DNA of 64,000 nucleotides, taken from Candidatus Pacearchaeota archaeon. Its GTDB lineage: Archaea > Nanobdellota > Nanobdellia > Pacearchaeales > GW2011-AR1. The position numbers were made by a program, and so were the translations under genes. Every line of letters begins with the position of its first letter. Within the stretch, counting starts at the first letter, position 1. The notes under the pieces are model-generated. The model saw nothing but the letters and a program-made list of their open reading frames with translations. It did not search any database and was not told the origin of the DNA. Below are positions 2,727 through 52,412 of the stretch, piece by piece. Location of the stretch: NCBI GenBank assembly GCA_040879785.1, contig JBBDJR010000004.1:14778-78777 (forward strand), given 5' to 3'.

Positions 2727-5135
2727 TTATTCAACTAGTGTCGCTGTTGCAGCACTTCCTTGTTCGTAAACTACCTTCTCACCAACAGATGTATCGATGC
2801 TTCCGTCTGGTCTGTTCATTAGAAGATTAACTGCATTTGTAGTGTCTTCTCTCTCATAACCAGCTACAAGCAATGCGATCTTTCCTGATTGTCCACCTGC
2901 GTCCGCAGCGTCAAAACTCTCAATTAAGAATTCTCCAGAACCAACTCCTGTTGCATCTGTCCAGTCACTTCCACAGTGTGCTCCACCTACAAGGCTAGCA
3001 GCTACTGAGTTAATACAGCTTCCACCAACAACGATAAGGTTTTTGTTCATGTCTTCAGAAGTTATTACATTATCTGCAAAAACAACATTCTCGTCAAGCT
3101 CACCGTTTTCTTCGACAGTATCTGTTGAAGACACGAAGATTCTACCAAAAGATTCTTCGCCGTGGTAAGTTACAGTAGCTGTCTTCTCATCTCCGCTCGT
3201 GTCCCAATCAATTTTTGAGGCAAGTTCAGATTCAACATAACCAACATAGTCATCTGTAGACTGGATTCTCTTAGTTGGATCTGAAAATGTTGTTCCAGTA
3301 GATGTACCGTTTACTCCAACCGCATTAACATGGATTGTTTCATCACTAGCATCTCTTGGTTCAAGAGTTAATCTTATCTGTCCTCCAGCTGCAAGCGACT
3401 GATCTTTGTCTTGCTCATCCATGAACAAGTACCAGCTTTCATTGTTGTGTCCTGTTTGCCCGACACTTGTTGCATTAATTGGATGGAAAGCACCTTTTTC
3501 AGTGGTCTGATTGTTTGCAGTCTCATAAGGCAAGTAAATCTTCAAGCCATCAGCAGTGTAAATGTTCCTCATAACTCCTGCATCTGTACTTGCAAGGTTA
3601 GTTATAGTAAGGTTAAAGTCACTAGAACTTACTCTTGCATCTACATCAACCTGAATCTCTATATCTCCAGCAACAATTGTGCTTCCGTCTGATACTTTAT
3701 ATGTTGTACCAGAACCTAATGAAGTAATGCTTGTTTCGTTATCCGAATTAACGGATGAAACTCTGAACACTTCCGAATACGCATCAGTTGAGCCTTCCCA
3801 TGAAGCAACAAACCACTCGTGATTCTGGCTCGCATTAAATGCAACAGAACTACTATTAGAAGTTACAAGTAACTTGTCATCAGATTCACCAATTCCTTTT
3901 ATGGCTGCAGTACTCTCATTGTGATATAACAATGGAAGAGTCACACTGCCTCCTTTCAAGGGAGCAGTTAGAGTAATATGTGAACCAGAATCCTCAATTC
4001 GTGTCACTTCTTCTGAAGGTGTATGGAATTCTGTCATTGAAAGCTTGAAAGTCTCAAATCCTGGAAGAACCATCTCATGGTCAGGGGTTACCCAAGCTCT
4101 ATCACTTGTTTCCCACTGAAGCTTAACACCTGAAAACTCTCCAGATGAATTTATACTTCCTGAAACAACAGTAAGTCCTTCAACAGTATCTCCATTCAAT
4201 TCAACTTCAGCTCCTTCTTCCAAAACAAGTTCTCCAGTACCAATGCTGAAATCAACAAACGCGTTAGGGTCGTCTGCGAATGCAGGCTCGTTAAATTCTT
4301 TAACACCTACATGAGTCCCATCACCTAAATCATAAGTATCTCCTGATCCAAGCCTTCCAGTAGTATCTCCGTCAACAGTTAGCTTAGCACCATCACTCGT
4401 TATAGAGTGTATGATTACATCGTAAGAAGTTCCATCAACAGTAAGTGTTATGGTTTCTCCAGGCGTAAGGCTTCCTTCAGTAGCTGAATCAAGCAATGTA
4501 ATCTTGTTACCGCTACCCGCACTTGTAGAACTCTCTATGCTTGAGATGAAGTACTCTTGTCCGAAAAGCTCAATGTTTGTTGTATCAAGCTTAGCAGCCG
4601 TAAAATCAGGCTTTGTCTGAAACTCCATAGTGTAGTTAAGAACTTCTGTTCCTGAGGAAGTCAATGAGATTCCTATTGTAGGAACGTCGTCCAAATCACT
4701 ATCCCTGAAGTGAGTTAGCTTAAGATTAGTGCTAAACTCAATCTTCTGTGTGAAGTCGAAGTCTTTATTGTCATCGTCTCTGAAAGTTCCATCACCTAAA
4801 AGATTTTCCAATTGAGCCTTTCTCAGAGTATCACGAACTCCGTTCGCATTGTCTCCAAGATTGAACTTATTTCCTGTTCTTTCAATCTCAAAATTTTCAC
4901 TTCCGACACCAGCAGCAGTGCCTGTTGCCAAAGCCAAAAGATCGTTAGCGACCTTTGTAGCTCCTGCCTCGTCTGTTGCAGAAACTCCTGTTCCTGAACC
5001 GTGAACAACCGCAAAGTCAGCTACTCCGTCTTCAACGAATGGAGCCGGATAGTTCTGAGCACCTACTCCTGCAGTCAAACCAAGAGTCATAAGACCCATA
5101 GCTACAGCAGCAATTTGCTTAAATTTATATTTCAT
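2727..5135 (-). CDS. Large secreted surface (S-layer-like) glycoprotein
   Basis: 802 aa. Signal peptide MKYKFKQIAAVAMGLMTLGLTAGVGAQ resembles archaeal S-layer protein leaders. T/S/G/D-rich, many N-x-S/T sequons. An oligo-T terminator follows the stop. Confidence 0.65.
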   Translation of the reverse strand: MKYKFKQIAAVAMGLMTLGLTAGVGAQNYPAPFVEDGVADFAVVHGSGTGVSATDEAGATKVANDLLALATGTAAGVGSENFEIERTGNKFNLGDNANGVRDTLRKAQLENLLGDGTFRDDDNKDFDFTQKIEFSTNLKLTHFRDSDLDDVPTIGISLTSSGTEVLNYTMEFQTKPDFTAAKLDTTNIELFGQEYFISSIESSTSAGSGNKITLLDSATEGSLTPGETITLTVDGTSYDVIIHSITSDGAKLTVDGDTTGRLGSGDTYDLGDGTHVGVKEFNEPAFADDPNAFVDFSIGTGELVLEEGAEVELNGDTVEGLTVVSGSINSSGEFSGVKLQWETSDRAWVTPDHEMVLPGFETFKLSMTEFHTPSEEVTRIEDSGSHITLTAPLKGGSVTLPLLYHNESTAAIKGIGESDDKLLVTSNSSSVAFNASQNHEWFVASWEGSTDAYSEVFRVSSVNSDNETSITSLGSGTTYKVSDGSTIVAGDIEIQVDVDARVSSSDFNLTITNLASTDAGVMRNIYTADGLKIYLPYETANNQTTEKGAFHPINATSVGQTGHNNESWYLFMDEQDKDQSLAAGGQIRLTLEPRDASDETIHVNAVGVNGTSTGTTFSDPTKRIQSTDDYVGYVESELASKIDWDTSGDEKTATVTYHGEESFGRIFVSSTDTVEENGELDENVVFADNVITSEDMNKNLIVVGGSCINSVAASLVGGAHCGSDWTDATGVGSGEFLIESFDAADAGGQSGKIALLVAGYEREDTTNAVNLLMNRPDGSIDTSVGEKVVYEQGSAATATLVE

Positions 5136-5984: not shown

Positions 5985-6338
5985 ATGGCAACAACAAAAA
6001 CAAGAGAAATAACAATATCTGAATCAAAAGGAGCATTCTATCTATTCAAAAAAGCAGGATTCTCCAAAAAAGACTATGATTTTGAGGGTTTGACGGCTCT
6101 GAGAAGGATACTGAGCAACGAAAGGGCCAGAATTCTCCATTCAATAAAGAACCAGGAACCCACCTCAATCTACGATTTAGCCAAAAAATTAGGCAGAAAC
6201 TTCAAATCTGTAAGTGATGACATAAAACTCCTTGAAAGATTCGGCTTCATAGAGTTAATAGAGGAAAAAACAAAGAAAAGAACGAGGCACAAGCCGGTAA
6301 TCTCAGCAGACACAATCACAATTAATATCAAAATTTAA
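5985..6338 (+). CDS. Winged-helix DNA-binding transcriptional regulator
   Basis: 117 aa. HTH segment LSNERARILHSIKNQEPTSIYDLAKKLGRNFKSVSDDIKLLERFGFIEL. Confidence 0.55.
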   Translation: MATTKTREITISESKGAFYLFKKAGFSKKDYDFEGLTALRRILSNERARILHSIKNQEPTSIYDLAKKLGRNFKSVSDDIKLLERFGFIELIEEKTKKRTRHKPVISADTITINIKI

Positions 6339-6821: not shown

Positions 6822-7328
6822 CTAAGCATAATAAGCCCTAAAATTAATCCTTATCTTTATTCTTTCCCTTCCTCTAACAAAATCCTGAGAAGCCTCTCTA
6901 TAATTTGAGGTCCGATTCCCCTCCGAAAGAGAAAGAATATCACTTCCTCCATCCGAAGTTATGTTAAGCTCATACCCTCTCACAGGCCGATTACCTTCAA
7001 ACGGCCATCCCCGCCCCACAATATTTGTAAGAGTATCTTCTAAAACATCGCAAGAAAAATCCCCATCAACACATGTTTGCCTATTACTACACTCAAAAAT
7101 CAAATCCTGAACGTCATGATATCTCCCTCCGGGTCCGCTACACTCTGTTGTGACATGTAAAGACGACTGTAAAAAGCTATTCGCTTCAAAACTCTCAACG
7201 CCTTCATCATTCCCTCCTCTTATATAGAAACTAAGCAAAAACAAAAGGATTATAGCCACAATTATTATAATCACTGCAAATCCCACAATTTCTTCCTGCC
7301 CGCGTTTATTTTTAATCACCATTTTCAT
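6822..7328 (-). CDS. Prepilin-like protein (archaeal class III signal peptide)
   Basis: N-terminus MKMVIKNKRGQ|EEIVGFAVIIIIVAIILLFLL: K/R-G-Q followed by a hydrophobic helix, typical of archaeal type IV pilin precursors. Confidence 0.55.
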   Translation of the reverse strand: MKMVIKNKRGQEEIVGFAVIIIIVAIILLFLLSFYIRGGNDEGVESFEANSFLQSSLHVTTECSGPGGRYHDVQDLIFECSNRQTCVDGDFSCDVLEDTLTNIVGRGWPFEGNRPVRGYELNITSDGGSDILSLSEGNRTSNYREASQDFVRGRERIKIRINFRAYYA

Positions 7329-7802
7329 TTAACCCCCATGATACACAATCAACCTCGCCAAATCGCAATCTTCCTGTATCAATCCGTTTATATTTTCATA
7401 TCTACATAAGGCGACGAAGTTCGAAACCCCGACTCCTGAACCCCCTCCATCCAGAATTGTAATCTCTCTGCTTCCAGGATAAATTTCTTTTATCTCTATT
7501 CCATCAACTCCCCAAAAACCAGAGTACTTGCCCGAAACCCCTTGAAGAGCAATAACCTTATCTGCGTCAACACAACTTAACTTTGTTCCCCCGAAAGCAC
7601 TTCCACAAGAAAACTCAGGAGAATTTGCAAGCTTTGAAACAAGAGTCAGAGCATCTCTCTCTTCAATATCTTCCGCAGACTGCCTCAAGTCAGAGAAGAA
7701 AATCATCAAAATAAACATCCCTACAATAGCAAAAAACAGAGTCACGGCTAAAAGCATGAACGCCATCTGCTGTATCTTCATCTGCCCTTTTTTATCTACC
7801 AT
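7329..7802 (-). CDS. Prepilin-like protein (class III signal peptide)
   Basis: MVDKKGQ|MKIQQMAFMLLAVTLFFAIVGMFILMIFF. Abuts the neighbouring genes with no gap. Confidence 0.55.
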   Translation of the reverse strand: MVDKKGQMKIQQMAFMLLAVTLFFAIVGMFILMIFFSDLRQSAEDIEERDALTLVSKLANSPEFSCGSAFGGTKLSCVDADKVIALQGVSGKYSGFWGVDGIEIKEIYPGSREITILDGGGSGVGVSNFVALCRYENINGLIQEDCDLARLIVYHGG

Positions 7803-8791
7803 AGCTTACACCTCGCTCCGCTGTTTTCATCATCTACATTTCTTACAAGAGCTTTAATATTAAGAAGATCCTTTGAAGTTTGAACTTCTCTAAACGCATT
7901 CCTCAACTGAAGAATATCATTATTCGAAGTACACCCTTGAGACGAGAGAAAACTTTCTTTTTGATTATAAATTGTAGAGAGTTCGTCGGCCCTTTTCATA
8001 AGCCTCTCAACCTGACACTCATAAATACTCGGTTCAGAAAAAATAGCAGCATACATCAAAGCATCTTCCGCAAAGTACATTGTTCCACTATCTTTCTGAA
8101 CTTCGCTTCTACCATAACGAACATTAACATCGCAATTAACTTCCGAAGAACCGCCAAAACACACATTTATGCTTTCTGCAGGACATTCTTCATCTCCGGT
8201 ATCTCCACCCTCGATAAATACGTTCCAGTTTTCATTTCCCTTTTTCAGGTCACTTAATTCTTTTCTAATATCTTCTTCCGCATCTCCATCAAAACCAGAG
8301 AAACAATAATTCTCGTCGGCAGAAGTCATATAGATAACATCGGAAATTTTGAAAGGAAAATTAAACGGCTTTGAAAAAAGAAAGAAATTCCTTCCTTCAA
8401 CATCTCCCTCTGAAAAAATATATTTATTCTCAAACCTAGAGCTAAGATTGGTCTCGCTCCAGCTTCCACGGGTTTTCTGTGAGACTCTTACTCTTTGCTC
8501 TCCGAATGTTCCTGATGAAGAACACCTGTTATGAATTATTGTTTCAAGAGGCATAGTCAAAAAATTAACCTGCCCGGACTCAAACCCTGTCTCTAATGGA
8601 TTCAACAAAACGCCAATCTCTGCCCCAGCTCTCGCATCCGAGACATCGTTGCTCGTATCAACAATCTGCGCAACCCCATATATCGCAAGGAAAAGTATAA
8701 ACCCTCCTGCAATTATCGCAAAAAGCCAGGCAAACGACATCTGAAATCCGTGATTATTTCTCATCTTCTGCCCCCAGATTTTTCTTTGCAA
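7796..8791 (-). CDS. Pilin-like secreted protein (atypical signal)
   Basis: N-terminus MRNNHGFQMSFAWLFAIIAGGFILFLAIYG. Overlaps the downstream gene by 7 nt. Confidence 0.4.
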   Translation of the reverse strand: MQRKIWGQKMRNNHGFQMSFAWLFAIIAGGFILFLAIYGVAQIVDTSNDVSDARAGAEIGVLLNPLETGFESGQVNFLTMPLETIIHNRCSSSGTFGEQRVRVSQKTRGSWSETNLSSRFENKYIFSEGDVEGRNFFLFSKPFNFPFKISDVIYMTSADENYCFSGFDGDAEEDIRKELSDLKKGNENWNVFIEGGDTGDEECPAESINVCFGGSSEVNCDVNVRYGRSEVQKDSGTMYFAEDALMYAAIFSEPSIYECQVERLMKRADELSTIYNQKESFLSSQGCTSNNDILQLRNAFREVQTSKDLLNIKALVRNVDDENSGARCKLW

Positions 8792-9179
8792 TCTTGAAAA
8801 GTTTATTAACTATTTTTTTAATCTTCTCTTCATGGTTTATGTAAAAATTTCCGCTTTCCTTCCTTCCGTAATAAACCGTTCCGTGCCTGAATCTTCTCAT
8901 TCTATCAAGAATTTCCAAATCACTTTCGTTAAGCCCGTAATCTTTTGATAAGAATTTTATCAGAGATATATGACTAAGTGTTTTATATCCTCTGAGATAC
9001 ATTAATGCTGTCATAATCTGGATGGAAATCTCGTAATACTCTTCAAGAATTCTATAAGTAATGTCTCTTGGAATTGATTTTATTACCAATCTTAATCTTT
9101 CATCAGCCATTTCAAGTAAATCTCGGGCTCTTGCCAAGTCCTTGCTAATCTTAAACACATCTCTATTAGATTCTGCCAT
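8754..9179 (-). CDS. HEPN-domain protein (partner of the adjacent nucleotidyltransferase)
   Basis: 141 aa with an R-x5-H motif (DRMRRFRHGTVYY). Overlaps the MNT gene by 14 nt. Confidence 0.6.
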   Translation of the reverse strand: MAESNRDVFKISKDLARARDLLEMADERLRLVIKSIPRDITYRILEEYYEISIQIMTALMYLRGYKTLSHISLIKFLSKDYGLNESDLEILDRMRRFRHGTVYYGRKESGNFYINHEEKIKKIVNKLFKIAKKNLGAEDEK

Positions 9180-9678
9180 ATAAAATCCACCCTCTTTTTA
9201 GGTTGTCTCTGATATTTTTATCCGCCCTATTGACATCTTTTACAAAAGTAATATGGATGTTTCTGCTTAATCTTTTTTCGTATTTTCCAAGAGGAATCTC
9301 TTTTTTTATTTTACTAATTACTACTAAATCCACATCGCTTTCTTCAATATCTTCCCCTTTTTGATATGATCCAAAAAGAATAATCGCCTTAGGACCAATT
9401 TTTTCCGCAATCTCTTTTTTAAGAGTGATTAGCGAGTAAAGGTTGTAAACCTGTTTATATGAGATAAATTTCTCGTTTTCTCTGTTAGCCACAAATCCAT
9501 TGAAAGGCTTGGATTCTTTCTTCTCTATGAGATTCTCTTTTTCCATTGTTTTTATATGGTTTCTGACAGAGGTTTGGGCAAGGTCTATCTTTCTGCTTAT
9601 TTCCCTAATAAAATGAACTTTCGTAGGCTCTTTAAAAAAAACTTCAAGAACTCTTATATAGCTACAATTTTGTATCAT
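9166..9678 (-). CDS. Minimal nucleotidyltransferase (MNT) with N-terminal wHTH
   Basis: NTase motif ILFGSYQKGEDIEESDVDLVV (GS..x..D.D). The N-terminus looks HTH-like. Confidence 0.7.
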   Translation of the reverse strand: MIQNCSYIRVLEVFFKEPTKVHFIREISRKIDLAQTSVRNHIKTMEKENLIEKKESKPFNGFVANRENEKFISYKQVYNLYSLITLKKEIAEKIGPKAIILFGSYQKGEDIEESDVDLVVISKIKKEIPLGKYEKRLSRNIHITFVKDVNRADKNIRDNLKRGWILYGRI

Positions 9679-9719
9679 ATGATATATTAATGTTTATATA
9701 TGTATATAAATGTACCGAT

Positions 9720-10256
9720 TTACTCCTGCCTTTTTATTATAACCTCAGCCTCGCCAAATTCTTTAATCAACACCAACTCAAGAGTCCCTCCGTTGTTTTC
9801 AATACAAAACGGATTTTCTTGATTTGTTGTTTCTCCAATATCAATATTTCTAATCTCTACGGATTCAGTCTCGGCGGACCCGATAGGATAAAACACAAGA
9901 TTATCCTCGTCAAGAGCCCTGAATTTCAAATCTTCAAACAATCCGTCATCGCTTCCAGTTCCTTTATCTGCATCACTATCAATAAAACAAACCATTTCTA
10001 TTCTTGAAGGAAGATTATACTCTCTTTCCTGAGAGCCTCCCTGACTTTTCCACATCGTATCAACATCAGACCTAAAATCATCCACGAACACGCCGACTTC
10101 CGCAGTTCTCTGTATCCCTAAAAAAGTACTTATCGCATAAAACGCAAACACAAGAAAAATCACTATAAGTATCACCGAAAAAATCATCCCGAAAGATAAT
10201 TTAATCTGCCCTTTCTTTACCTCTTCACTCTTCTCAAACAACCCTCTTTTATCCAT
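9720..10256 (-). CDS. Prepilin-like protein (class III signal peptide)
   Basis: ...EEVKKGQ|IKLSFGMIFSVILIVIFLVFAFYAI. Confidence 0.55.
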   Translation of the reverse strand: MDKRGLFEKSEEVKKGQIKLSFGMIFSVILIVIFLVFAFYAISTFLGIQRTAEVGVFVDDFRSDVDTMWKSQGGSQEREYNLPSRIEMVCFIDSDADKGTGSDDGLFEDLKFRALDEDNLVFYPIGSAETESVEIRNIDIGETTNQENPFCIENNGGTLELVLIKEFGEAEVIIKRQE

Positions 10257-10512
10257 AAAAACAAAAGATAAAATAAGTTTATTAATTTAATGATATCGTC
10301 AAGGATTGATTATATTTAGAAAACGTAAGGTCTTAACAGCCTGTGAGTTGTGTAGTGGAGAAGGTGACTCTCTACTAATTGGTTTAGGAGAATATTTATC
10401 TACTAAATCAATCATTTTCCTAAACTTTTCTAAATATTCTTTTGCGTTTTTTTCAGCGTCGGGAATTATTTAATCTTGATTCTATTGTTTCTATGTATTA
10501 CTAATATATCCT

Positions 10513-12756
10513 CTAAGAAACATCATATGGTCTGACAGTAATACTACACTCGTCGGGTTTTGTTGGCCTGTTTCCGAACCCATCTGCACATTTTATGTAG
10601 AAGTTTCTGTTGGATTGCCAGTTTGTTGAGTGCTCTGTGTCTCCCTCGCTAGGATTCATCTTATCTCCTTTTTCAAAAGGATATCCACACCCAAGACTTA
10701 GATCGTTACTATAAACACACTCTGCCTCCTCATTAGTTATAATATTTAGATTTCCGCTACTCTGGAAGACTCTTACTACTCCCGGCGCTTGAATGTCCGT
10801 TTCCACTGTGAAGCTTATTTGGGTTGTGTCGGAGTTTCCTCCAGAGTCTGTACATCTTATATCGTAAGAGTAAGAGCCCGCGGAAAGATCAAGTCTCTGA
10901 CTATGTTCATGAGATCCTGTTTCTATAAAATTACTAAATCTATTTTCTCCTGCAGGACTGAAACTACATAGGGATTCTCCCCTATTGGCTCCTGCAGACG
11001 TTTTGACTTCAAGTTCTACTTTAATCACGTTAGTAGAATCTTTGATTGTTGTCGCATTAGGTCCTGCAGAGTCAAGTACTAATGGTTGAGTGCCGATTAT
11101 TCTTAAATGATATGGGATTTCGTTTGCATTTCTTTGATTCTCCTCTTCTGTTCCTTCAAGGTGTGGCTGATCTTTACAGCTTATATAAAAGTCGTTATTG
11201 TCTCTGTTTCTTAATCCTGTCAATTCAGTGTTACATCTGTATTCTCCAAGAGAAGTTGACTCAAGAGCACTCTCTGGACAGTCCATCTGGTTTTCTTCGG
11301 GCATATCCTCGTAGCTTTGTTCAAGTCTGCTCCACCTACACTCTGCAGGTTCATTTACAAATATTGAGGATCTGACAGACGATTGGTTAAATGCTATGTG
11401 ACTATTATCTGAAGGAAGGGTGTTAGTTATCACTGGTTCTTCAGTATCAGGCCCATCATCTACACAGAATCTAAACTGGAAATCTGCAGTATTTGAGTAT
11501 CCTTGGGGAGTTTGACATCTGACATAAAGAGAGATTTCTCCCCCATGCTGATAAGTTATGTTTTCTGCGGCAAGTGATTGATGGCTTGGAAGACTCATTC
11601 TGAATTGATGAGATTCATCAGACATTCCTCCACTCATAAATATATTTTGCATATCTTCAAACGTGCTTGCCCTTCCACTTACCGGAACAATTTTACATCT
11701 TGCATTTTTATCAAGCTCAACTCCAAACTCTAATGGAGTGAAAGGCGCTACACACCCACTATCTCCTTCATTTCTGACTATTTCAACACCTTTATGAGGT
11801 GGGTTAATTGCATCATCATCAGAGTAACTATAGCCTTCTGTCAAAACGTCATTCCAAGGCTCAATCACAGCAGGTTTTATATCATCTCTATCAACAAATT
11901 CACACTTTTTATTTTCTGTTCCTTCGTTGATTATTTCACAAGATTGTCCTAAACTCTTACACCTGTACTCTGTACAAGGAATCTCTTCATCATTACAAAG
12001 CTCACAATTTTCTCCTCCAAGTGGAGCGTCCCAAGGATAACACGAGAATGAAACAGAATCGTATCTTGCTTGCTTAAAAGACATGACTTTGTAGAGAATT
12101 CCAATTGTTGCCACTATTGGTCCCAGTGCTGGTACCGCTCCCCATAAAATAGTGCTTGTTAGAAAGTTTTCAACTCCTAAAAGACCGAGGGTTTTTGCAG
12201 TAGTTGCCCCAACTACATATCCCCAGAAAGCCCCTTTTCCTGCGGATTCAGAGAGTTCTGGACTTGCTCCTGCTATCTGGAAACCATATTGGGTTAGACC
12301 TTTAACCGCAAAAGCATAGGCTGCGTTAGCAGCCGCATATCCTAGCGTATTCCATAAAACTCCCCATCCTGCACCACTTCCTATTGAAGCTGTTGTAGGA
12401 TCAAGAACAGCTCCAATTCCTGAAGGGGAAGAGGTTTCTCCTCCTGTTGTAGCCTCAAGAGTCCCTTCTGCATCTCCTATATTAATTCGTTCAAGTATTT
12501 TATCGCTCGCTATATTTGCTCCTATAGGGACCCCTATATCTGTGATTGGATTTACACTTCTTCTGTTTATCTGGCCTGTTTCACCTTCTGCTGCCCCATT
12601 ATCAAAATCAGAATCTCCTTCTTGTGCACTCACAGAAGGCAAGCTGCTCCCTAAAAAATATGAGAAAGAAAATATAGCAACTACTAGAATAAATATTTGA
12701 GTTATTGCAACTATCCTCTGATTCTTTTCCGATTTCTCTTTTTTTGGTTTAATCAT
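10513..12756 (-). CDS. Large Cys-rich secreted/membrane protein
   Basis: 747 aa. Signal/TM at the N-terminus (IVAITQIFILVVAIFSFSYFLG). A ~100-aa Gly/Ala-rich hydrophobic segment (GAGWGVLWNTLGYAAANAAYAFAV...GAVPALGPIVATIGILY). More than 30 Cys in the rest. Confidence 0.6.
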   Translation of the reverse strand: MIKPKKEKSEKNQRIVAITQIFILVVAIFSFSYFLGSSLPSVSAQEGDSDFDNGAAEGETGQINRRSVNPITDIGVPIGANIASDKILERINIGDAEGTLEATTGGETSSPSGIGAVLDPTTASIGSGAGWGVLWNTLGYAAANAAYAFAVKGLTQYGFQIAGASPELSESAGKGAFWGYVVGATTAKTLGLLGVENFLTSTILWGAVPALGPIVATIGILYKVMSFKQARYDSVSFSCYPWDAPLGGENCELCNDEEIPCTEYRCKSLGQSCEIINEGTENKKCEFVDRDDIKPAVIEPWNDVLTEGYSYSDDDAINPPHKGVEIVRNEGDSGCVAPFTPLEFGVELDKNARCKIVPVSGRASTFEDMQNIFMSGGMSDESHQFRMSLPSHQSLAAENITYQHGGEISLYVRCQTPQGYSNTADFQFRFCVDDGPDTEEPVITNTLPSDNSHIAFNQSSVRSSIFVNEPAECRWSRLEQSYEDMPEENQMDCPESALESTSLGEYRCNTELTGLRNRDNNDFYISCKDQPHLEGTEEENQRNANEIPYHLRIIGTQPLVLDSAGPNATTIKDSTNVIKVELEVKTSAGANRGESLCSFSPAGENRFSNFIETGSHEHSQRLDLSAGSYSYDIRCTDSGGNSDTTQISFTVETDIQAPGVVRVFQSSGNLNIITNEEAECVYSNDLSLGCGYPFEKGDKMNPSEGDTEHSTNWQSNRNFYIKCADGFGNRPTKPDECSITVRPYDVS

Positions 12757-12765
12757 TTTATTCTA

Positions 12766-14517
12766 TCATTCTATATTTCTATCTAATTCAACTAATTCTT
12801 CTTTTTCCCAGTATCCTTCAACTCCAAGGTAATTCTTACCACTTCCACAATCTCCAAGCGCCATACACATATTACTTCTATCTTCGAACCATTCACTATC
12901 CAGTATGCTTGAAAAGGTGCTATCCACACCCTCTCTTCTATTGTCTTCTGAAAGACCTACGCAGTGGCAGTTTTCCACACATTTCCAATCGCTAGGCTTT
13001 ACTATGCTCTTATATATTGTTCTCTCGAATTTTACAACACAATTTTCATTTGCTACCATACATGCTTCTTGGGAACTTCCTTCAGAATTCCAAAAATCAA
13101 GTCCAGGAGGATACCTTGGGACGCATGACGCTCCTTCTTCACTATCTGACTCACTTCTTGGAACTAACGCCCCCTCTTCATTAATTACCATAAGATTTCC
13201 TTCATCTTCATCCCTTAATATACTCTGACCTTCTTTCCACATACAATCTCTTTGCTGAATATCTTCACATTCTTGTTGGTTGTCTATTGTCCAACAATCC
13301 TGCCATTTGTTAGCTCTAAATTCTGCAATCCTGAATGGGCCCCCTTCTGTCTGAATTTCATCTTCAATGCAAACAGTTTGTCTTGGATCTCCTGCCTCCT
13401 CAATAAGGATTTCTCCGGACGAACAGTGGAGCCTGTAATGCTCACTTCCTGGAGAATTTTCTTCTACCCTCTCTTCAGTAGTTGTTGAACACCATCTCTC
13501 TCCGTCAAAGTACCTTTCTCCGTTGAAATTACAACTTAAATCGCTACATACAAAATTACCGTAATCAGGACTGACAGATGTCTGCTCATTTCCTCTTTCA
13601 TATCTCCTTCCAATACTCCCCGCAAGATCGTCGCAATTCCCGCACTGACCTGCATTTGAAAAATCAGAATTAAGTGAGCAGCTCTCTCGAGGTTCAATTA
13701 CATTAGTCCAGTAATCTTGATCTGTTGGATTTATTTTTGAAGCATCATAAACATTTGCTATATTTCCACAAGTGTCAGTAAAGAAAACTTCTGGCCTACC
13801 TTCTACGAGAGTTGTTTCCCTACTCGGTCCGCAAACAGTTCCAAGAGCTTCTGCAGAACACAAAAATCCCTCATGGAATTCAACGTCAGTTTCATCTCCT
13901 GAGTTTGCCTCCTCTGTTTGACATTCTTCTCTTGTCAGCATTCTACAGTCTCTAGAGAACTCATCATCAAAAACACAAGCGCCTTTCTCTTGAGGAGATG
14001 CCATTCCTACACATTGGATAGGGTCCTGTATATCTCCTCTAAAAGTTGTCTCAGCTCCATATAATGATGAAATACTAGTACATCTTGTCTGGGTTACAAA
14101 GGATGCTCCATCACCTGCAAGACAACAACCTAACTGGCATTGTGGTGTAATTTCACTTCTTTCTCTTTCATCCCATGAGCCCCCACTATCTTCACAAACT
14201 CTTCTTGGAACATTTTGACTACATAACCCTTCTGCACTATCTACACATGTTCCAAGTTGACAATATGCTGCAGAATCACATGAGGTCTCCAAATATTCAT
14301 AGTCTGTGTCAACTTCATCAAGAGGAACATTTTGACACCATGCTCCGCTTGTTGTCCTCTCAGCACAGTATGAAACTTCTTGTGCGGAGACATTCATCGA
14401 AAATGAAAAAATAATTGTTAAGAAAAGTATAGATGATACTAACAGAATAAATTTTCTCTTTTTATATTTAGATTCTCTTTCCATTTTATTCGGATCCTGC
14501 AGAAGGTCCGTAACCAT
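12766..14517 (-). CDS. Cys-rich secreted protein
   Basis: 583 aa. Signal peptide FILLVSSILFLTIIFSFSMNVSAQ, about 45 Cys, acidic. Confidence 0.6.
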   Translation of the reverse strand: MVTDLLQDPNKMERESKYKKRKFILLVSSILFLTIIFSFSMNVSAQEVSYCAERTTSGAWCQNVPLDEVDTDYEYLETSCDSAAYCQLGTCVDSAEGLCSQNVPRRVCEDSGGSWDERERSEITPQCQLGCCLAGDGASFVTQTRCTSISSLYGAETTFRGDIQDPIQCVGMASPQEKGACVFDDEFSRDCRMLTREECQTEEANSGDETDVEFHEGFLCSAEALGTVCGPSRETTLVEGRPEVFFTDTCGNIANVYDASKINPTDQDYWTNVIEPRESCSLNSDFSNAGQCGNCDDLAGSIGRRYERGNEQTSVSPDYGNFVCSDLSCNFNGERYFDGERWCSTTTEERVEENSPGSEHYRLHCSSGEILIEEAGDPRQTVCIEDEIQTEGGPFRIAEFRANKWQDCWTIDNQQECEDIQQRDCMWKEGQSILRDEDEGNLMVINEEGALVPRSESDSEEGASCVPRYPPGLDFWNSEGSSQEACMVANENCVVKFERTIYKSIVKPSDWKCVENCHCVGLSEDNRREGVDSTFSSILDSEWFEDRSNMCMALGDCGSGKNYLGVEGYWEKEELVELDRNIE

Positions 14518-15301
14518 AAGGCTTTACAACACTTCTAGTTGCGAATTGAAATTTATCTTCTGTATTTGTATTAGTTATTATGTAAACTGCTGTTCCATAC
14601 TCTGGACTTCTTTTTTCAAACTGTAGATGTCTATAAAGAGCATCATAAAACAAATTCTCTTCTCTCCCCGATTTTTCTTCTTCAATCATGCTGTGAGTAA
14701 TCATAACTAGTTCATAAAGATTATTGTTTAAAACTACATTAAAATCCTCAAATCTTTCAGTATCTGTTCTTGAAACAGTGAGAACGTGGCTCATATTAAC
14801 AATAATCCTATTAGGAAGCAGATTAACACTTGTTGCTCCTTGATCAGGGTCTGTTTCATAGTTTCTTTCATCATAGCTTGCAACAAGAGAATTAAAACAA
14901 TCTTCAACATATCCTTTTCCTACTAACTCTTTCTCAATTTCAGATTCAATGTGCCGTTTCAGTAAAGGTTGCTGTTCTGTGCATCCTGTGAGATCTTCAT
15001 TAGTATAACATAAATATGCAATGTCTACTCCATTAAAAGTTATATTAAGATATCCAGGCTCAATACTCCCACCCTGCAACGAGACCTTTTCTACAATATC
15101 TTTTAAGTCATCTTCTAAACATGTTTGCATAAATGCCTGAGGATTCGTTTCGTCGAAATCAGGAGTGTCTGTCCTCAATTCCGGAGATAAGAAAAAGAAC
15201 AACGCTGCCGCGCCGACAACTAAAAGTGCAATGATTATAAACAAAGTCACCTGACCCTTTTTATCATTAAGATAACCAAATAATTCTCCCCTTTTATTCA
15301 T
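14486..15301 (-). CDS. Prepilin-like protein (class III signal peptide)
   Basis: MNKRGELFGYLNDKKGQ|VTLFIIIALLVVGAAALFFFL. Overlaps the downstream gene by 32 nt. Confidence 0.55.
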   Translation of the reverse strand: MNKRGELFGYLNDKKGQVTLFIIIALLVVGAAALFFFLSPELRTDTPDFDETNPQAFMQTCLEDDLKDIVEKVSLQGGSIEPGYLNITFNGVDIAYLCYTNEDLTGCTEQQPLLKRHIESEIEKELVGKGYVEDCFNSLVASYDERNYETDPDQGATSVNLLPNRIIVNMSHVLTVSRTDTERFEDFNVVLNNNLYELVMITHSMIEEEKSGREENLFYDALYRHLQFEKRSPEYGTAVYIITNTNTEDKFQFATRSVVKPYGYGPSAGSE

Positions 15302-15335
15302 GGATTTTATAAGGAAATTTTATTTATAAATCTTG

Positions 15336-17147
15336 TTAGGATTTAGAGGTTTTAGAAGATTTATTTTTTTTCTTTTGATTCTTATTATTTGAGTCATTCA
15401 CTACTAAAATCGTTAACAAAACTATTAAGAGAACGAACGTGGCAGTTATTGCACCGCCATTAGTTTTAATCAACGTCCCCACCACAGCACCGGTTATTCT
15501 ATCGAGAAAACTGTTCTCTACTTCTTCAACGACCTCTTCTTCAACCTGTTTTTCAACAACACAATCTTGAACTTCGTCAGGTTTTTCTTCTCTCGGCTCA
15601 CACCATCCCTCGGGATAAGAGCAGGTTCTTGTTTGTTTTCCGTTTTTATTGCAGACGCTCCACTCGTCACATTCCCACTCAGTCACACAAAATCCCCCTC
15701 CTCCGCCAGAACTTGAAGAAGTTGTCTGGCTACTCTGGGAAGATTCTTTTTCAAAAACAGAAAAGATTGTAAAGTGATTCACCGTTACGGAAATTGTTTT
15801 CTCTGTCTTGTTTATCGTCGGATTAGGAACCAATTGCCAGGAATCGTCTGTCTCATTAAAGAAATAAACATCCAATTCGTCCTCGTCGGAAACGCCTGAA
15901 CTGTCATAATCAAAGGTCAGTGTAACATTAAAGTCTTCGTTTTTAAGCTCATCAGACGTTATGTTAAAGAATTTGCTCGCACTCTCAAAACCCGAAGTGC
16001 TGAAGTTTGTTTCGTTGTTTTCTGTTATGTTTAATGTGAAAAACTTGGCTGGGTTGTTTATGAACTCAAGGGAAATTTCATCAGGAGTGATTATTAACGG
16101 TTTGATAAATTCAATAACAAACCAAGAGCTGTTAACTATGTTATTTGAAATTCCTTTTTGTAATTGAAGATTTGTTTCGTTTGTTAATGTGCTTGTTAAA
16201 AAAGATTGACCATAAAAGGTATTCCGTGTACTAAAACTATTTGATTGTAAAGTGGAAGATTTTGATAAATTAATTTCACTTATTTCTATGTTTTGTGGAG
16301 AATCTCCCGTAAATGAATGGATCCCCTTCTGAACACTTATATCTGGATGACTTATTACAAACCAGCTCAACGTTGTTATTCCCTCATCTAATTCCCTTTG
16401 TAATCCTATATTTGTTTCATTAATAAAATAAGATCTTATTAAAGTATTTCTAGCAGCCGTTACAGTAGACCTCTTCATTGCATAAATAAAACTCTTATCT
16501 AAGTCAACTTCGTTGATGCCTAGTGTGGCATTTGAAGAACCAGAATGTAAGGGGGTGAACCCTCTTTGGATATTTGCTCCCTCCCAATAAACAACTTGCC
16601 AAGAGACAGTTGAAACATTTCCTACTACATCTCTTGTTAAATTAAATCCTGTTTCATTAATAAATTCTGTAGTCCAAAAACCGCGCACATTTTGATTGTT
16701 TTCCGTTGCATTCAATCTGTTTGAAATTAAGATAAAACTTTTATTTAGATTTATTTCATTGATATCAATATGTATAGAATTTGTCGACGAAGAGGAAGTT
16801 TCTATTTGTCCTCTCTGGACGTTAAAGTCAGAATTTTCAATAACTTCCCAAGAGACTACTGTTTCCTCAGAACCAAACTTTTCAAATTGCAATAAAGTTT
16901 CATTTACTAATGTTCCAGTTATCTGGAGATCTCCTGGAGAGGATCTTGACGACTTTGTTGATAATAAAACAATTGATTTTGAAGGATTAACTTCATTTAT
17001 TGTCACGTTCAAGATAGGAGAATCCATTACTTCAACTCCCCTTTGAACATCATTAGCACTAACAAAACCAGCATTCGCTAATAATACAAAAAATATAAAC
17101 GTTAAGATTAAGACTCCAAACATAGAGCCTTTCTTATTAAACCTCAT
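15336..17147 (-). CDS. Repeat-containing surface protein with C-terminal TM anchor and basic tail
   Basis: 603 aa. Signal peptide. Four repeats of ~100 aa (V.SW.V....NIQRG / SWFVI). Cys knot, then the TM helix ATFVLLIVLLTILVV and a K-rich tail. Confidence 0.6.
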   Translation of the reverse strand: MRFNKKGSMFGVLILTFIFFVLLANAGFVSANDVQRGVEVMDSPILNVTINEVNPSKSIVLLSTKSSRSSPGDLQITGTLVNETLLQFEKFGSEETVVSWEVIENSDFNVQRGQIETSSSSTNSIHIDINEINLNKSFILISNRLNATENNQNVRGFWTTEFINETGFNLTRDVVGNVSTVSWQVVYWEGANIQRGFTPLHSGSSNATLGINEVDLDKSFIYAMKRSTVTAARNTLIRSYFINETNIGLQRELDEGITTLSWFVISHPDISVQKGIHSFTGDSPQNIEISEINLSKSSTLQSNSFSTRNTFYGQSFLTSTLTNETNLQLQKGISNNIVNSSWFVIEFIKPLIITPDEISLEFINNPAKFFTLNITENNETNFSTSGFESASKFFNITSDELKNEDFNVTLTFDYDSSGVSDEDELDVYFFNETDDSWQLVPNPTINKTEKTISVTVNHFTIFSVFEKESSQSSQTTSSSSGGGGGFCVTEWECDEWSVCNKNGKQTRTCSYPEGWCEPREEKPDEVQDCVVEKQVEEEVVEEVENSFLDRITGAVVGTLIKTNGGAITATFVLLIVLLTILVVNDSNNKNQKKKNKSSKTSKS

Positions 17148-18155: not shown

Positions 18156-20852
18156 ATGGAAAGTTCTTCTTTAAAGACCCAAAGAATAAAAAACGTAATG
18201 TCTATGTACTATGCCAGGAAAGATGTCCAAAAAGCCATATTTGATTTTTCAAAAAACAGAGAGATTGCACCTAGTTTTATGATGGAGAGCTTTGGAAAAA
18301 GACCTGACTCTTTTCAATATCAGGGAGATATATTTAGCCTGGTAAAAAAAGGGGCGACTTCATTTCACGGAAGCCAAGAACTCTGGAAAGACCCTCTTGA
18401 AATTTCTACAGACCACGACAGAAAACAACTCAATGAAATAAGAATAGGGTGGGACCTTCTATTTGATATAGACAGCAAATATCTCGACTATAGTAAAGTT
18501 CTTGTAAAAATAATAATAAAAATCCTTAATTTTTATTGTATTAAAAATATTGGAATAAAATTTAGCGTTTCAGGAGATACTCCTATATTGATAAAATGTG
18601 ATAATGAAATTTCTCTTATTTCAATAAAGGAAGCAATAGATCTTATAAAAAAAGGAAAAAAATTAGAAGTTTTATCCCTCGATAAAGAAAGGAAACTTAC
18701 GTTTTCAAAGATATATGATTTCTTAGAGCATGAAGATACTCTTTATGAATTAAAACATTCTCAAAGCACAATTCCTCTAAAGGCAACAGGGCATCACTCA
18801 GTTTTTGTATGGGATAAAGGAGATATCATTCAGAAAAAAGTTACAGAGCTGAAAAAAAGAGATTTTTTGGTTTCCTATCATTCTGAGAAAAATCCGTTCT
18901 CAGAAAAAAACCTAAAGATAACTCATAAGTTTGAATTAGGAAGAAACCAGTTCTCTAAAGAAATAATAAAAAAAGATATAAAAATAACTAATGAACTTGC
19001 CCGTTTAATAGGGTATTTTTTAGCAGAGGGTCATGTCACAAATACAATTAATCAGGTTGGATTTTCTTTTAATAAAAATGAAGAAGAATACATAAACGAT
19101 GTTAAAAATATCTTAGAAAAAATTACAAACAAGAAGATCTCAATAAGACATCCAAACCCCAACTCAACTCAAATATTAGTTCATTCCAAAGAATGGGCTG
19201 AATTCTTTGATAATTTTTGCGGAAAGAAAAAAGATAAACACGTGCCTCCTTTCATGTTTAAGTCTTCTAAAGAATTGTTTTTAGAAATGTTAAAAGGATA
19301 TATAAGAGGAGACGGATACAAAATAGGAGAATATGGAGTTGTTGCTAAGTCAGTTTCAAAAAGATTAGTCACCGAAATTGTTTGGCTTTGTGAGCTAAAT
19401 GGTATATCCTGCAATATGTCGTCCGAGAAAAATAAGCCTCATCTTTTGCCCCAAGGGAATTTGTTCAAAGGAAGTTTGGTATATATGTTAAGAATCCCTA
19501 AATCAGAACTTGTAGATTTGGAATTTAATCGCGGCAGGAACGGCTTTTCTCCCTATCCTGGAAGCAAGATCTTCCCAACAGACGGATTGAAGTCTGTTTA
19601 TTCCCAGATCAGGCCAAAAATGTTCAATCTACATCGGGCAGAGCAAATGACCCTTTCAAAAAAACGGGCAAATTTAAATAGGATCAGAAAAGTTTTAGAT
19701 TGGTTTTATAAATTTAAAAGTGTAGAACCTGACAAAGATTCCAGAAAGATTTTACTTAACTATGAAAAATTGTTTAATTCAGATATGTCCATTACAGAGA
19801 TTAAAGATATAACCAAAAAAAATAAGGCTCTTGTTTATGATGTTTCTGTGGAGGGGACCGAATCTTTCTTTGGGAATTTTTACCCTATTTTATTACATAA
19901 CTCAGGAAGCAAAGGATTCCATATAATTATTCCATGGAAGGCGTTCCCAAAAGAAATAAACGGAGTAAAGACTTCAGACATGTTCCCTGAATGGCCGAGA
20001 ATCATCACACAATTTATAATGAGTGTTTCAAATAATGAGCTCATAAAAGAGGTAACAGACCTCACAAAAGAGAGCCAGGGTACAAGCAAATACGTAAAAG
20101 ACTTTGAAGCTCCGAAGGAAGTAATCCCTGATTTAGTCCTTGTTTCCCCAAGACATTTATTTAGAATGCCCTATAGCCTCCACGAAAAAACAGCTCTTGC
20201 CAGTGTGGTTTTAAATCCGATTCCCGAAGAAATTGAGAACTTCCAGCCAAAAGATGCAGACCCTCTTAAAGTTAAAATAAAGAATTTCATTCCTGATTCA
20301 GAAGAAGGTGAGGCAACAGAACTTCTTAGAGAAGCTCTTGACTGGCACAAAAACCAGAATCCCGAAGAATCCGGAGAGATAAAAGAAAGAATGGAATTCA
20401 AACCAGCGAAGATATCAGAGATTTCTAAAGAGATGATTCCTCCATCAATAAAGAAGATTCTTGAAGGCGTTAGGGACGGAAGAAAACGTTCATTATTTAT
20501 TATTCTAAATTTCTTCAGGTCTATCGGAATGGATAAAGAAGAGATTGAGTCACGAGTATCGGAATGGAATGAAAAAAACGAGGTCCCTTTAAAACAAGGT
20601 TATATAAAATCTCAGCTCATATGGAGCTACAGAAACAAAGTAGTTCCTCCCCCAAACTACGATAAAGATTATTATAAGGGGATTGGCGTAACGCCGACGG
20701 AAGAAGAATTTAGATACAAGAATCCTGTTAATTATATTACGAGAAAGTCTGCACAGAAAAAGGCCAAAGAAATAGCTGAAAAGAAAAGAACTGGCAGAGT
20801 CAAAAAGAAAAACATATCTAAGAACAAAGATAATTTTAAAAATAAGGATTAA
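18156..20852 (+). CDS. priS: DNA primase catalytic subunit PriS containing a LAGLIDADG intein, with a C-terminal extension
   Basis: AEP motif I GWDLLFDIDSK. Motif II SGSKGFHIIIP forms after splicing. Motif III DLVLVSPRHLFRMPYSLHEK. The N-terminus aligns with archaeal PriS. Confidence 0.7.
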   Translation: MESSSLKTQRIKNVMSMYYARKDVQKAIFDFSKNREIAPSFMMESFGKRPDSFQYQGDIFSLVKKGATSFHGSQELWKDPLEISTDHDRKQLNEIRIGWDLLFDIDSKYLDYSKVLVKIIIKILNFYCIKNIGIKFSVSGDTPILIKCDNEISLISIKEAIDLIKKGKKLEVLSLDKERKLTFSKIYDFLEHEDTLYELKHSQSTIPLKATGHHSVFVWDKGDIIQKKVTELKKRDFLVSYHSEKNPFSEKNLKITHKFELGRNQFSKEIIKKDIKITNELARLIGYFLAEGHVTNTINQVGFSFNKNEEEYINDVKNILEKITNKKISIRHPNPNSTQILVHSKEWAEFFDNFCGKKKDKHVPPFMFKSSKELFLEMLKGYIRGDGYKIGEYGVVAKSVSKRLVTEIVWLCELNGISCNMSSEKNKPHLLPQGNLFKGSLVYMLRIPKSELVDLEFNRGRNGFSPYPGSKIFPTDGLKSVYSQIRPKMFNLHRAEQMTLSKKRANLNRIRKVLDWFYKFKSVEPDKDSRKILLNYEKLFNSDMSITEIKDITKKNKALVYDVSVEGTESFFGNFYPILLHNSGSKGFHIIIPWKAFPKEINGVKTSDMFPEWPRIITQFIMSVSNNELIKEVTDLTKESQGTSKYVKDFEAPKEVIPDLVLVSPRHLFRMPYSLHEKTALASVVLNPIPEEIENFQPKDADPLKVKIKNFIPDSEEGEATELLREALDWHKNQNPEESGEIKERMEFKPAKISEISKEMIPPSIKKILEGVRDGRKRSLFIILNFFRSIGMDKEEIESRVSEWNEKNEVPLKQGYIKSQLIWSYRNKVVPPPNYDKDYYKGIGVTPTEEEFRYKNPVNYITRKSAQKKAKEIAEKKRTGRVKKKNISKNKDNFKNKD
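18564..19901 (+). mobile_element. Intein (446 aa) with LAGLIDADG homing-endonuclease domain inside priS
   Basis: Starts with SVSGDTPIL (block A, Ser1). HE blocks LARLIGYFLAEGHV and LKGYIRGDGYK. Ends with ...ILLHN, followed by the extein Ser. Confidence 0.65.
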
Positions 20853-45795: not shown

Positions 45796-45910
45796 GAAAA
45801 AGAAAAATTTAAAGGAGTTTTTAAGGTTTTTAGTTTGTTTGTGATGGAAAAGGTTAAAAGTTAGTGTTTTCTAAGAGCGTTATGAGAGATAATGTGATGG
45901 AGGTTAGAGG

Positions 45911-49006: not shown

Positions 49007-49110
49007 AAATATATAAACTGAAAAATCAATTGAATAATAACTAAAAGAGAGGTGATCGGAGAAGAATCCGGGTGATCCCTCTCTGATTACTTCTGAGATA
49101 GATAATAATT

Positions 49111-49920: not shown

Positions 49921-49941
49921 TAATTTCTATTAAATTCTAGT

Positions 49942-50790: not shown

Positions 50791-50796
50791 GGTATA

Positions 50797-52266: not shown

Positions 52267-52412
52267 TATAGGTTTAAGAGGAGAGAGATTATTTATAAAT
52301 CTTGCAGAATTTTACCCAAATTTTTTCTTCGCAAAAACTTCTGTTAATGCCGATGTTTGTGAGATGTGCGTTGGAGAAACTATTATAAATTAAAATTGAT
52401 TGATAACTATGT

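Follow-up and report, generated by a model that had tools for sequence, protein, structure and literature searches.

A conserved cluster of pilin-like and cysteine-rich surface protein genes in Pacearchaeota and Woesearchaeota

A seven-gene core and its conservation

We describe a gene cluster from a Candidatus Pacearchaeota archaeon that encodes five small proteins with pilin-type signals and two large, cysteine-rich proteins, located on the minus strand (6822-17147) of a 64-kb window—the whole stretch of contig JBBDJR010000004.1 analysed here, within which all coordinates are given. ORF calling places ten open reading frames (ORFs) at this locus, seven of which form a core in the order E (271 amino acids)-BIG2 (583)-BIG1 (747)-D (178)-C (331)-B (157)-A (168). 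The pilin-like members are E (14486-15301), D (9720-10256), B (7329-7802), A (6822-7328), and C, which runs from 7796 to 8764 (322 amino acids) with the NCBI start and from 7796 to 8791 (331 amino acids) with an alternative TTG start at 8791. The two large members are BIG2 (12766-14517) and BIG1 (10513-12756), the latter identical to WDZ69_01135 from a metagenome-assembled genome (MAG) labelled ‘Candidatus Pacearchaeota archaeon’. The remaining ORFs, also on the minus strand, are BIG3 (603 amino acids; 15336-17147), which adjoins the core and lies outside the conserved unit, and a pair between D and C (8754-9678) encoding a HEPN protein (8754-9179) and a winged helix-turn-helix (wHTH)-minimal nucleotidyltransferase (9166-9678). 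An earlier note, made from the sequence alone, had listed eight of these ORFs, all of which we recover at the same coordinates; it made no mention of the HEPN/nucleotidyltransferase pair that splits the locus.

That note had also described the genes as overlapping or abutting, and the ORF positions bear this out: reading frames abut or overlap, the exception being a 256-nt gap ahead of D. This gap suggests that E-BIG2-BIG1 and D-C-B-A may be separate transcription units. A TATA-like sequence, ATTTATAAATA, lies ~25 nt upstream of E, between E and BIG3.

Relatives of BIG1 were found in at least 586 confirmed stretches of species-representative genomes, and 82 related loci were compared. The 80 BIG1 loci listed are labelled Pacearchaeota, Woesearchaeota, or ‘Nanoarchaeota’, along with a few labelled just ‘archaeon’ and two evidently mis-binned contigs. 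Across the 82 loci, the order of genes reads PCNA-[optional E′ plus a 1200-1400-amino acid protein]-E-BIG2-BIG1-D-C-B-A-wHTH gene (on the opposite strand)-surface layer (S-layer) protein. Counting only loci with enough flanking sequence, the core order is intact in ~90%: D-C-B-A is uninterrupted in 53 of 59 loci and E-BIG2 in 51 of 54, with median gaps of -7 to +26 nt within each half and of ~100 nt from BIG1 to D. E is always found directly upstream of BIG2/BIG1 or of a fused paralog of the two. The arrangement seen in the window is thus kept in its relatives, and the seven-gene core, here bearing two insertions, constitutes the true unit, because both BIG3 and the HEPN/nucleotidyltransferase pair are lineage-specific.

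Two neighbours follow the cluster in 42 of the 44 loci that have enough flank. The first, divergently oriented in the window (5985-6338, plus strand), encodes a winged-helix protein of the HVO_A0114 family (PF25212) that is 66-68% identical in two related loci (L001 and L003) and is a possible regulator of the cluster. The second (2727-5135, minus strand) encodes an 802-amino acid S-layer protein with a Pfam match to S_layer_C (2.7e-10, above the cut-off).

Separately, two public MAGs that carry the cluster appear to be mis-assigned: one contig is labelled ‘uncultured Alphaproteobacteria bacterium’ (CAZADO010000237.1; L056) and another ‘Patescibacteria group bacterium’ (JAHYJW010000002.1; L084), with the cluster in the latter accompanied by PCNA and the S-layer gene.

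Signals and relationships of the small proteins

To characterize the N-termini of the small proteins, we examined which residues immediately precede the first hydrophobic helix in 59-75 orthologs per family, drawn from the 82 loci. Three families were uniform at the predicted cleavage site: position -1 was Gly, Ala, or Ser and position +1 was Gln in 59 of 59 orthologs of A (motif Q-E-E-[MI]-[VI]-G-F), in 61 of 61 of B (Q-[ML]-K-I-Q-Q-M-A-F-M-L), and in 75 of 75 of E (Q-[VI]-T-[IL]-F-I-I). Within A, Gln +1 and Glu +3 are invariant and position +2 is Glu except in one ortholog; within B, Q-x-K-x-Q-Q is invariant. D is nearly as regular, with a small residue at -1 in 67 of 69 orthologs and Gln at +1 in 57 of 69 (Q-M-[KQ]-L-S-F-G-M-I-F-S). 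The register varies in C, where +1 is Phe, Tyr, Gln, or Ala ([FYQA]-[LQ]-[EQ]-I-S-F-[AGS]-W-L-F-A-I-I). Leaders in these families are short and basic, with Lys or Arg at -2 in ~80-92% of orthologs, and the hydrophobic helices that follow span 21-24 residues.

Within the window itself, predicted sites (marked here by a slash) read KRG/QEEIVGF in A, KKG/QMKIQQMAFML in B, KKG/QIKLSFGMIFS after residue 16 in D, and KKG/QVTLFIII after residue 16 in E; these four are the only ORFs in the 64 kb that combine [KR][GAS]Q with a following helix. C in the window, NHG/FQMSFAWLFAII, is atypical in having His at -2 (NHG/FQMSF), where its orthologs carry K/R-G/A. Of the five K/R-G-Q leaders described in the earlier note, which gave that of C as less typical, those of A, B, D, and E therefore stand, each preceding a helix of 21-24 residues, and that of C does not. 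The broader claim of that note, a class III (prepilin peptidase-type) signal, holds up, given that five distinct families keep the [K/R][G/A/S]/Q site with hardly any variation; conservation of the motif in position across ~60-75 orthologs per family also shows that it did not arise by chance. Gln at +1 is reportedly a hallmark of the Epd pilins cleaved by EppA in Methanococcus maripaludis. Ordinary Sec signals provide a contrast, since they end in ..[VG][SG]A after the hydrophobic core: this form is found in BIG1 (..VSA/QE), BIG2 (..NVSA/QE), BIG3 (..VSA/ND), and the S-layer protein (..VGA/QN). Judged from their N-termini, then, the five small families bear pilin-type signals for which cleavage is predicted N-terminal to the hydrophobic core, and we infer that cleavage probably occurs at these class III sites.

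The most conserved part of each family is its N-terminal segment—QEEMVGF in A, QMKIQQMAFML in B, SFAWLFAII in C, LSFGMIFSIILI in D, and QVTIFIII in E—a pattern that favours specific helix packing over the role of a plain membrane anchor. Charges after the cleavage site are strict only in A (Q-E-E, with Gln and the second Glu invariant) and B (Q-x-K). We had considered complementary charges directly after the site; C and D vary in this respect, and we keep it as an idea only.

Profile comparisons between families reveal partial paralogy among these proteins. A aligned with E (hhalign probability 86%, E 5e-6, 118 columns) and D with the N-terminal 52 columns of C (94%). C, the largest and best conserved of the pilin-like proteins, has 864 homologs, all annotated as hypothetical and none with a Pfam match. 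Its AlphaFold model (pLDDT 85.9, pTM 0.79) predicts a 43-residue N-terminal helix (residues 11-53), a beta-sheet (66-156), and a C-terminal helical bundle. C was the one small protein modelled, and its model matched no solved pilin fold and has no solved counterpart. Profile searches of C and E against PDB sequences returned nothing significant, and no window protein matched curated pilin, archaellin, or class III models of Pfam and NCBIfam (among them PF07790 and PF04021/DUF361) at E<=1. The small proteins are accordingly best described as having a pilin-type signal, judging by these comparisons, with membership in a known pilin family not established.

A sixth small family is represented by p188, a standalone pilin-like gene of 188 amino acids (39424-39990, minus strand) whose predicted site is KKA/AMEMSTGTIVTIVL (reading KKA/AMEMSTG..) and whose N-terminus aligned with D (hhalign 92.7%). 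The p188 family comprises 230 homologs, all hypothetical, and always adjoins cysS-type III RuBisCO; in two long contigs it is surrounded by housekeeping genes only, and no filament machinery was found near it in either. p188 is a candidate for a further, possibly major, subunit encoded 22 kb away from the cluster.

The large proteins and the inserted genes

BIG1 contains 21 Cys and BIG2 contains 37, fewer than the >30 and ~45 counted in the earlier note. The AlphaFold model of BIG1 (pLDDT 75.8 overall, ~90 in the ectodomain, from residue 240) begins with an N-terminal signal/transmembrane (TM) helix and ~90 disordered residues, followed by three Gly/Ala-rich helices at 131-226, which are predicted to form a membrane hairpin anchoring BIG1 in the membrane of the cell that makes it. 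Beyond this hairpin, the modelled ectodomain consists of 4-5 beta-sandwich domains resembling immunoglobulin (Ig) or fibronectin type III (FN3) folds, in which 20 Cys are invariant. The N-terminal hydrophobic segment is kept in 29 of 29 orthologs, nearly all of which also have a strong hydrophobic segment shortly before a CxPWxAP motif, and a weaker segment ~60 residues earlier is found in about half; the Gly/Ala-rich helices are conserved in position, not in sequence. Among the top 50 Foldseek matches of BIG1 in the PDB were only generic tandem Ig/FN3/cadherin ectodomains. Such an anchored protein does not sit easily with the pilus-tip adhesin envisaged in the earlier note, and the hairpin would better suit a stalk or a component that traverses the S-layer.

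BIG2 is a secreted protein by its Sec-type signal, without a TM anchor, and ~33 of its Cys are invariant or near-invariant in 44 orthologs. Profile searches with the window protein and these orthologs found no relative in Pfam or the PDB. A paralogous module is present in 22 of the 82 loci, in which a protein of 1200-1400 amino acids, again preceded by an E-type gene (E′), has an N-terminal half resembling BIG2 fused to a BIG1-like region extending from the hairpin to the C-terminus. This fusion argues that BIG2 and BIG1 act together, and also fixes the predicted topology as outside-hairpin-outside. Likewise, the presence of an E-type gene ahead of both the split and the fused pair suggests that E may link the pilin-like set to the Cys-rich module.

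As the earlier note had supposed, the large proteins match no characterized family of Pfam or NCBIfam. S-layer models (PF05124 S_layer_C and relatives) did not match BIG1, BIG2, or BIG3, though they did match the 802-amino acid neighbour, so the large proteins are not generic S-layer paralogs. Several other identities were tried and set aside. Profile searches of BIG1 and BIG2 against PDB sequences, like those of C and E, gave nothing significant; the match of BIG1 to AopB (E 0.17) was compositional, as was a hit to CTR1 in these searches, and identity as a class II fusogen (HAP2/fusexin) or a type III secretion translocator was rejected given the generic character of the Foldseek matches. A viral origin was likewise dismissed, because nothing in 50,697 phage records was matched when BIG1 and C were used as tblastn queries.

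The third large protein, BIG3, stands apart. It combines a Sec signal, 6 Cys, 21 N-glycosylation sequons, a small Cys motif, and a C-terminal TM segment with four repeats of ~80 amino acids (30-37% identity, 12 invariant columns), which were evident in a manual alignment and missed by a blastp search of the protein against itself. phmmer found no BIG3 homolog in 84 related loci, and the gene occupies the spot where 22 other loci carry the E′ plus BIG2-BIG1 fusion module. Thus, of the three giant proteins that the earlier note had joined in one system, BIG1 and BIG2 belong together and BIG3 does not; its four repeats and C-terminal anchor were described correctly, and it is not rich in Cys. Elsewhere, 1706 representative clusters contain the BIG3 module; many are giants (2000-6100 amino acids), and some have Big_13 or CARDB domains. 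Its N-terminal four-repeat part (residues ~30-350) and its C-terminal part (~355-600) also occur separately, and proteins that share them reach 6104 amino acids, with up to five matched stretches. These similarities indicate that BIG3 is a modular surface protein of a separate, very large, and uncharacterized repeat family.

The second insertion, the HEPN/nucleotidyltransferase pair, is recognizable by its domains (Pfam NTP_transf_2 8e-10 and HEPN 0.012; NCBIfam MntA 3e-7), which mark it as a putative toxin-antitoxin-type pair that was inserted here and stands outside the system. It is absent from most loci, and similar pairs lie elsewhere in the cluster in 6 of 82 (L013, L014, L048, L060, L062, and L064). 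Such pairs seem to have landed in this operon repeatedly.

Possible roles of the cluster and other features of the window

The earlier note had proposed a surface appendage or attachment system at this locus, and had reasoned that ordinary Sec signals on the small proteins, a well-characterized family for the large ones, or an arrangement not shared by relatives would speak against it; what emerged instead were class III-type signals, large proteins outside any such family, and a conserved order. The reading that we favour, to which we would give a little less than an even chance, is that the core represents the extracellular pilin and accessory half of a type IV filament-like surface apparatus specific to Pacearchaeota and Woesearchaeota. 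Under this reading, the five small proteins would be inserted into the membrane and their short, basic leaders removed at [K/R]-[G/A/S]/Q by a class III signal peptidase encoded elsewhere. Their family-specific hydrophobic N-terminal helices could then bundle into a short heteromeric stem, comparable to the minor pilins and pseudopilins that prime or cap bacterial type IV pili and type II pseudopili. This stem would be coupled through E to a two-part, disulfide-rich module, in which BIG1, held in the membrane by its hairpin, would project 4-5 Ig-like domains through the pseudo-periplasm and S-layer and bind the secreted BIG2, and the whole assembly may attach to surfaces or to partner cells. 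In favour of this reading are the near-invariant site, the conserved N-terminal segments, the partial paralogy among families, the gene order, and the BIG2-BIG1 fusion, along with the model of C, in which the N-terminal helix leads into a beta-sheet. The ORFs, the conservation of the motifs, the order of the genes, and the BIG2-BIG1 fusion are observed directly; the topology and Ig-like domains are predicted, and signal cleavage, physical assembly, reliance on an ATPase and platform encoded elsewhere, and an adhesive function are what we infer from them.

Several observations weigh against this reading. Searches for an assembly ATPase and platform (phmmer with E. coli HofB and HofC against the window and 84 loci, 1.3 Mb) recovered neither T2SSE nor T2SSF homologs, whether in the window or up to 10 kb from the cluster in ~80 genomes, the HofC query being of limited sensitivity for archaeal FlaJ. 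MarC and LPG_synthase_TM are the only window ORFs with three or more TM segments, and the window therefore holds no candidate for an A24 prepilin peptidase. Pfam searches of 40 window ORFs likewise identified no filament component, and these scans agree with the earlier note, which had seen no assembly ATPase, platform protein, or prepilin peptidase in the window. More generally, type IV pilus components are described as missing in DPANN genomes (10.1101/2020.05.14.094862, a preprint). The 143 members of the six small families that were scanned matched no curated pilin or class III model of Pfam or NCBIfam (at E<=0.1, only single-TM noise appeared among the 25 most-matched families listed). 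BIG1, as modelled, sits in the membrane of its own cell, which known pilus-tip adhesins do not. Finally, gene order is generally kept in these genomes, as the PCNA-primase and p188-cysS-RuBisCO neighbourhoods illustrate, and adjacency of the cluster to the S-layer gene and PCNA consequently proves little.

The literature on filaments in these lineages is mixed. Woesearchaeota express archaellins (PMC11606122), so some members of the clade, at least, must possess class III peptidases. Nanoarchaeota proper have been reported to carry pilus systems and an archaellum, and a few DPANN to carry Epd-like loci, known as ‘system 1’ of the type IV filaments (TFF) (bioRxiv 10.64898/2026.04.22.720090).

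Among known systems, the cluster most resembles the accessory sets of archaeal type IV pili. Loci for these pili typically encode minor pilins together with an S-layer-like protein that contains Cys and is anchored in the membrane, plus a large protein resembling an adhesin, and their pilin genes often sit away from the ATPase (PMC4858521). Common to both are several small proteins with class III signals, a membrane-anchored Ig- or S-layer-like Cys protein, a large secreted protein, and conserved Cys throughout. The cluster departs from such loci in lacking a linked ATPase, TadC/FlaJ platform, or FlaK/PibD peptidase in ~80 genomes, in comprising seven families that match no existing Pfam or NCBIfam model, in the predicted anchoring of BIG1 through an internal hairpin rather than a C-terminal TM segment, and in its restriction, among the matches listed, to MAGs of Pacearchaeota, Woesearchaeota, and ‘Nanoarchaeota’. 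BIG1 similarly recalls the S-layer-like proteins with extracellular Ig-like domains and 2-4 TM segments (arCOG02884 and others; PMC5898192), as well as the Ig-fold S-layer-like proteins of archaellum loci (arCOG05057); such proteins have been proposed either to belong to a complex that spans the envelope or to open up the S-layer where a filament passes. BIG1 shares with them a few TM helices and a predicted extracellular Ig-like array, and differs in having no match to PF07760/DUF1616 or to S-layer models. A similar S-layer-adjacent context has been described for the DPANN-specific ‘dark matter’ family cls.004306/NEQ255, which is given as secreted, found in 43 of 67 DPANN genomes, and often encoded beside S-layer-like proteins (PMC6393860); compared by description only, this family may overlap one of our seven. 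We also considered the arCOG01314 secretion system and rejected it, as neither the cluster nor the called neighbours in related loci encode its MoxR ATPase, vWA protein, or DUF4350 membrane protein.

Resemblances to better-studied filaments are partial. The signature of EppA/DUF361 is Gln at +1 after K/R-G, and the mature major Epd pilin starts with pyroglutamate. Although the cluster shares this feature with the Epd pili of M. maripaludis (TFF ‘system 1’), QxSxExxxL, the DUF361 motif, does not occur there in that form, PF04021 is not matched, and the ATPase, two platform genes, and EppA that the epd locus has of its own find no equivalent at the cluster. In bacteria, minor pilin sets assemble by way of their N-terminal helices into a complex that primes or tips the filament. 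The cluster parallels GspG-K, FimU/PilVWXE with PilY1, and ComGC-GG in placing four to five pilin-like subunits together, in some cases beside a large non-pilin protein, and in having one subunit much larger than the rest (GspK at ~330 amino acids; C at 322). Yet these sets belong to another domain of life, depend on another type of peptidase, and show no match in sequence or fold; moreover, BIG1 is not a beta-propeller like PilY1, being modelled as a membrane-anchored string of Ig/FN3-like domains, and BIG2 has no Pfam or PDB relative that would suggest one. We regard this resemblance as a possible functional analogy rather than as a sign of homology.

A clearly weaker but substantial alternative, unlikely in our estimation, is that the cluster encodes a static scaffold of the envelope, in which five anchored subunits, cleaved or not, would form an ATPase-free, S-layer-organizing pillar together with BIG1 and BIG2, much like SlaB-type stalks or the Sulfolobus bindosome (Bas). 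In the latter, proteins with class III signals become part of the envelope and S-layer region, and no long pilus is formed; Bas, however, has an ATPase (BasE), a platform (BasF), and sugar-binding substrates of its own, none of which lies at the cluster. A pillar of this kind would fit a cluster that is nearly universal in the clade, with one full set per locus, that adjoins the S-layer gene in nearly all loci, and that has no ATPase or platform gene nearby in any of ~80 genomes. It would also accommodate a membrane-anchored BIG1 whose predicted Ig-like domains are long enough to cross the pseudo-periplasm, an S-layer protein without an evident TM anchor, and a model of C that matches no solved pilin. 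Set against this, an invariant small residue at -1 and Gln at +1 in five families are hard to explain unless the site is processed. S-layer adjacency may simply be inherited synteny, PCNA and primase being equally conserved neighbours, and no similarity links the cluster to any S-layer or S-layer anchor family.

The filament-like reading also has a bolder extension, which we hold to be decidedly doubtful: that the cluster encodes a previously unrecognized, lineage-defining surface organelle, whose pilin-derived stem, either freed of the filament ATPase and platform or using a distant one in an unusual way, would present BIG1 as a stalk and BIG2 as a disulfide-rich head, together the primary device of these ubiquitous, uncultivated symbionts for host contact or recognition. 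In another proposal, an improbable one, the pilin-like stem would present BIG1 and BIG2 to a partner cell, and the BIG1 helices would insert into its membrane as a translocon- or fusion-like element, giving rise to the cytoplasmic bridges that some DPANN archaea are reported to form. In keeping with such a role, these Gly/Ala-rich helices are amphipathic or hydrophobic, conserved in position and variable in sequence, and preceded in the model by a long disordered tether; BIG1 has its weak match to the type III secretion translocator AopB in this region, and the genome is small, probably symbiotic, and carries a lytic transglycosylase. The AopB match, as noted, looks compositional, and the best structural matches are generic Ig/FN3 arrays that include neither fusogens nor translocators. 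In the fused paralog, furthermore, which is exported by Sec, an extracellular domain stands on either side of the hairpin, and for this reason the hairpin should integrate into the membrane of the producer itself.

We consider it quite improbable that the pilin-like proteins form a pseudopilus like that of type II secretion, pushing BIG2, the BIG1 ectodomains, or S-layer subunits outward. The five distinct subunits equal in number those of GspG-K or ComGC-GG sets, the secreted, disulfide-rich proteins encoded with them resemble cargo, and the S-layer gene adjoins; but archaea have no outer membrane for which a piston would be needed, the Sec signals of BIG2, BIG1, and the S-layer protein are of the ordinary type, and here too an ATPase or platform gene is not linked. 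Least probable is that unrelated membrane and secreted proteins, without a common function, are held together by a generally frozen gene order: conservation does reach beyond the cluster (to PCNA-primase and p188-cysS-RuBisCO), but the reading frames overlap or abut, five families share a processing motif and show partial paralogy, E, BIG2, and BIG1 have been duplicated as a module, and BIG2 and BIG1 have been fused.

Whichever role applies, the cluster belongs to the small number of multi-gene surface systems whose order is conserved across the relatives sampled, and it bears on how Pacearchaeota and Woesearchaeota, which rank with the most widespread archaea yet to be cultivated, contact other cells. 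All seven core proteins are still annotated as hypothetical, and the literature that could be searched yielded no description of the seven-gene cluster, the nearest items being general ones. Both the pilin-type signals and the overall plan of archaeal pilus accessory sets are already known in kind; new are the seven families without curated relatives, the predicted hairpin-anchored stalk, the lack of linked machinery, and conservation across the clade as sampled. The cluster would add up to seven protein families without a detectable curated relative, including in C a confidently predicted fold with no solved counterpart. It also offers concrete candidates for a surface apparatus, with defined cleavage sites, a predicted topology, a fusion that links partners, and a possible extra subunit. 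If the system does work without a linked ATPase, the known repertoire of pilin-like assemblies would be wider.

The window, which is archaeal and also contains a ribosomal RNA operon and RNase P RNA, holds several other features. In the spacer between 16S and 23S, ARAGORN called a tRNA-Asp (56585-56659, minus strand); the call is doubtful because an Rfam scan at gathering thresholds reported no tRNA there. A low-GC stretch at ~45900-52300 (0.29, against ~0.36) holds an Eco57I/MmeI-type restriction-modification fusion (45911-49006), which is followed shortly downstream by genes for a GIY-YIG/DUF4357 protein (49942-50790) and for one resembling DUF2779/RNase H (50797-52266); the low-GC part looks like an acquired island. 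The lytic transglycosylase (32707-33372, plus strand; SLT domain, 3.7e-19) has a homolog in Pacearchaeota contig L087 and may be directed at bacterial cell walls. Primase, encoded beside PCNA (18156-20852, plus strand), bears an intein (Intein_splicing and LAGLIDADG_3); its relatives, at 424-431 amino acids, are intein-free.

Further conserved genes flank the cluster. Directly after the S-layer gene in 41 loci is a gene for an N-terminally anchored protein with several Cys (202 amino acids in the window; 684-1292, minus strand), whose N-terminus is not class III-like in relatives, where it reads R-N-Q. On the other side, beyond the primase gene, two plus-strand genes (20864-22825 and 22862-24202) encode surface proteins of 653 and 446 amino acids that have no Pfam match; each has a Sec signal, a stalk rich in Cys, and a TM segment at the C-terminus, the larger with an additional Pro/Arg-rich cytoplasmic tail; both are conserved in this position in 16-19 loci.

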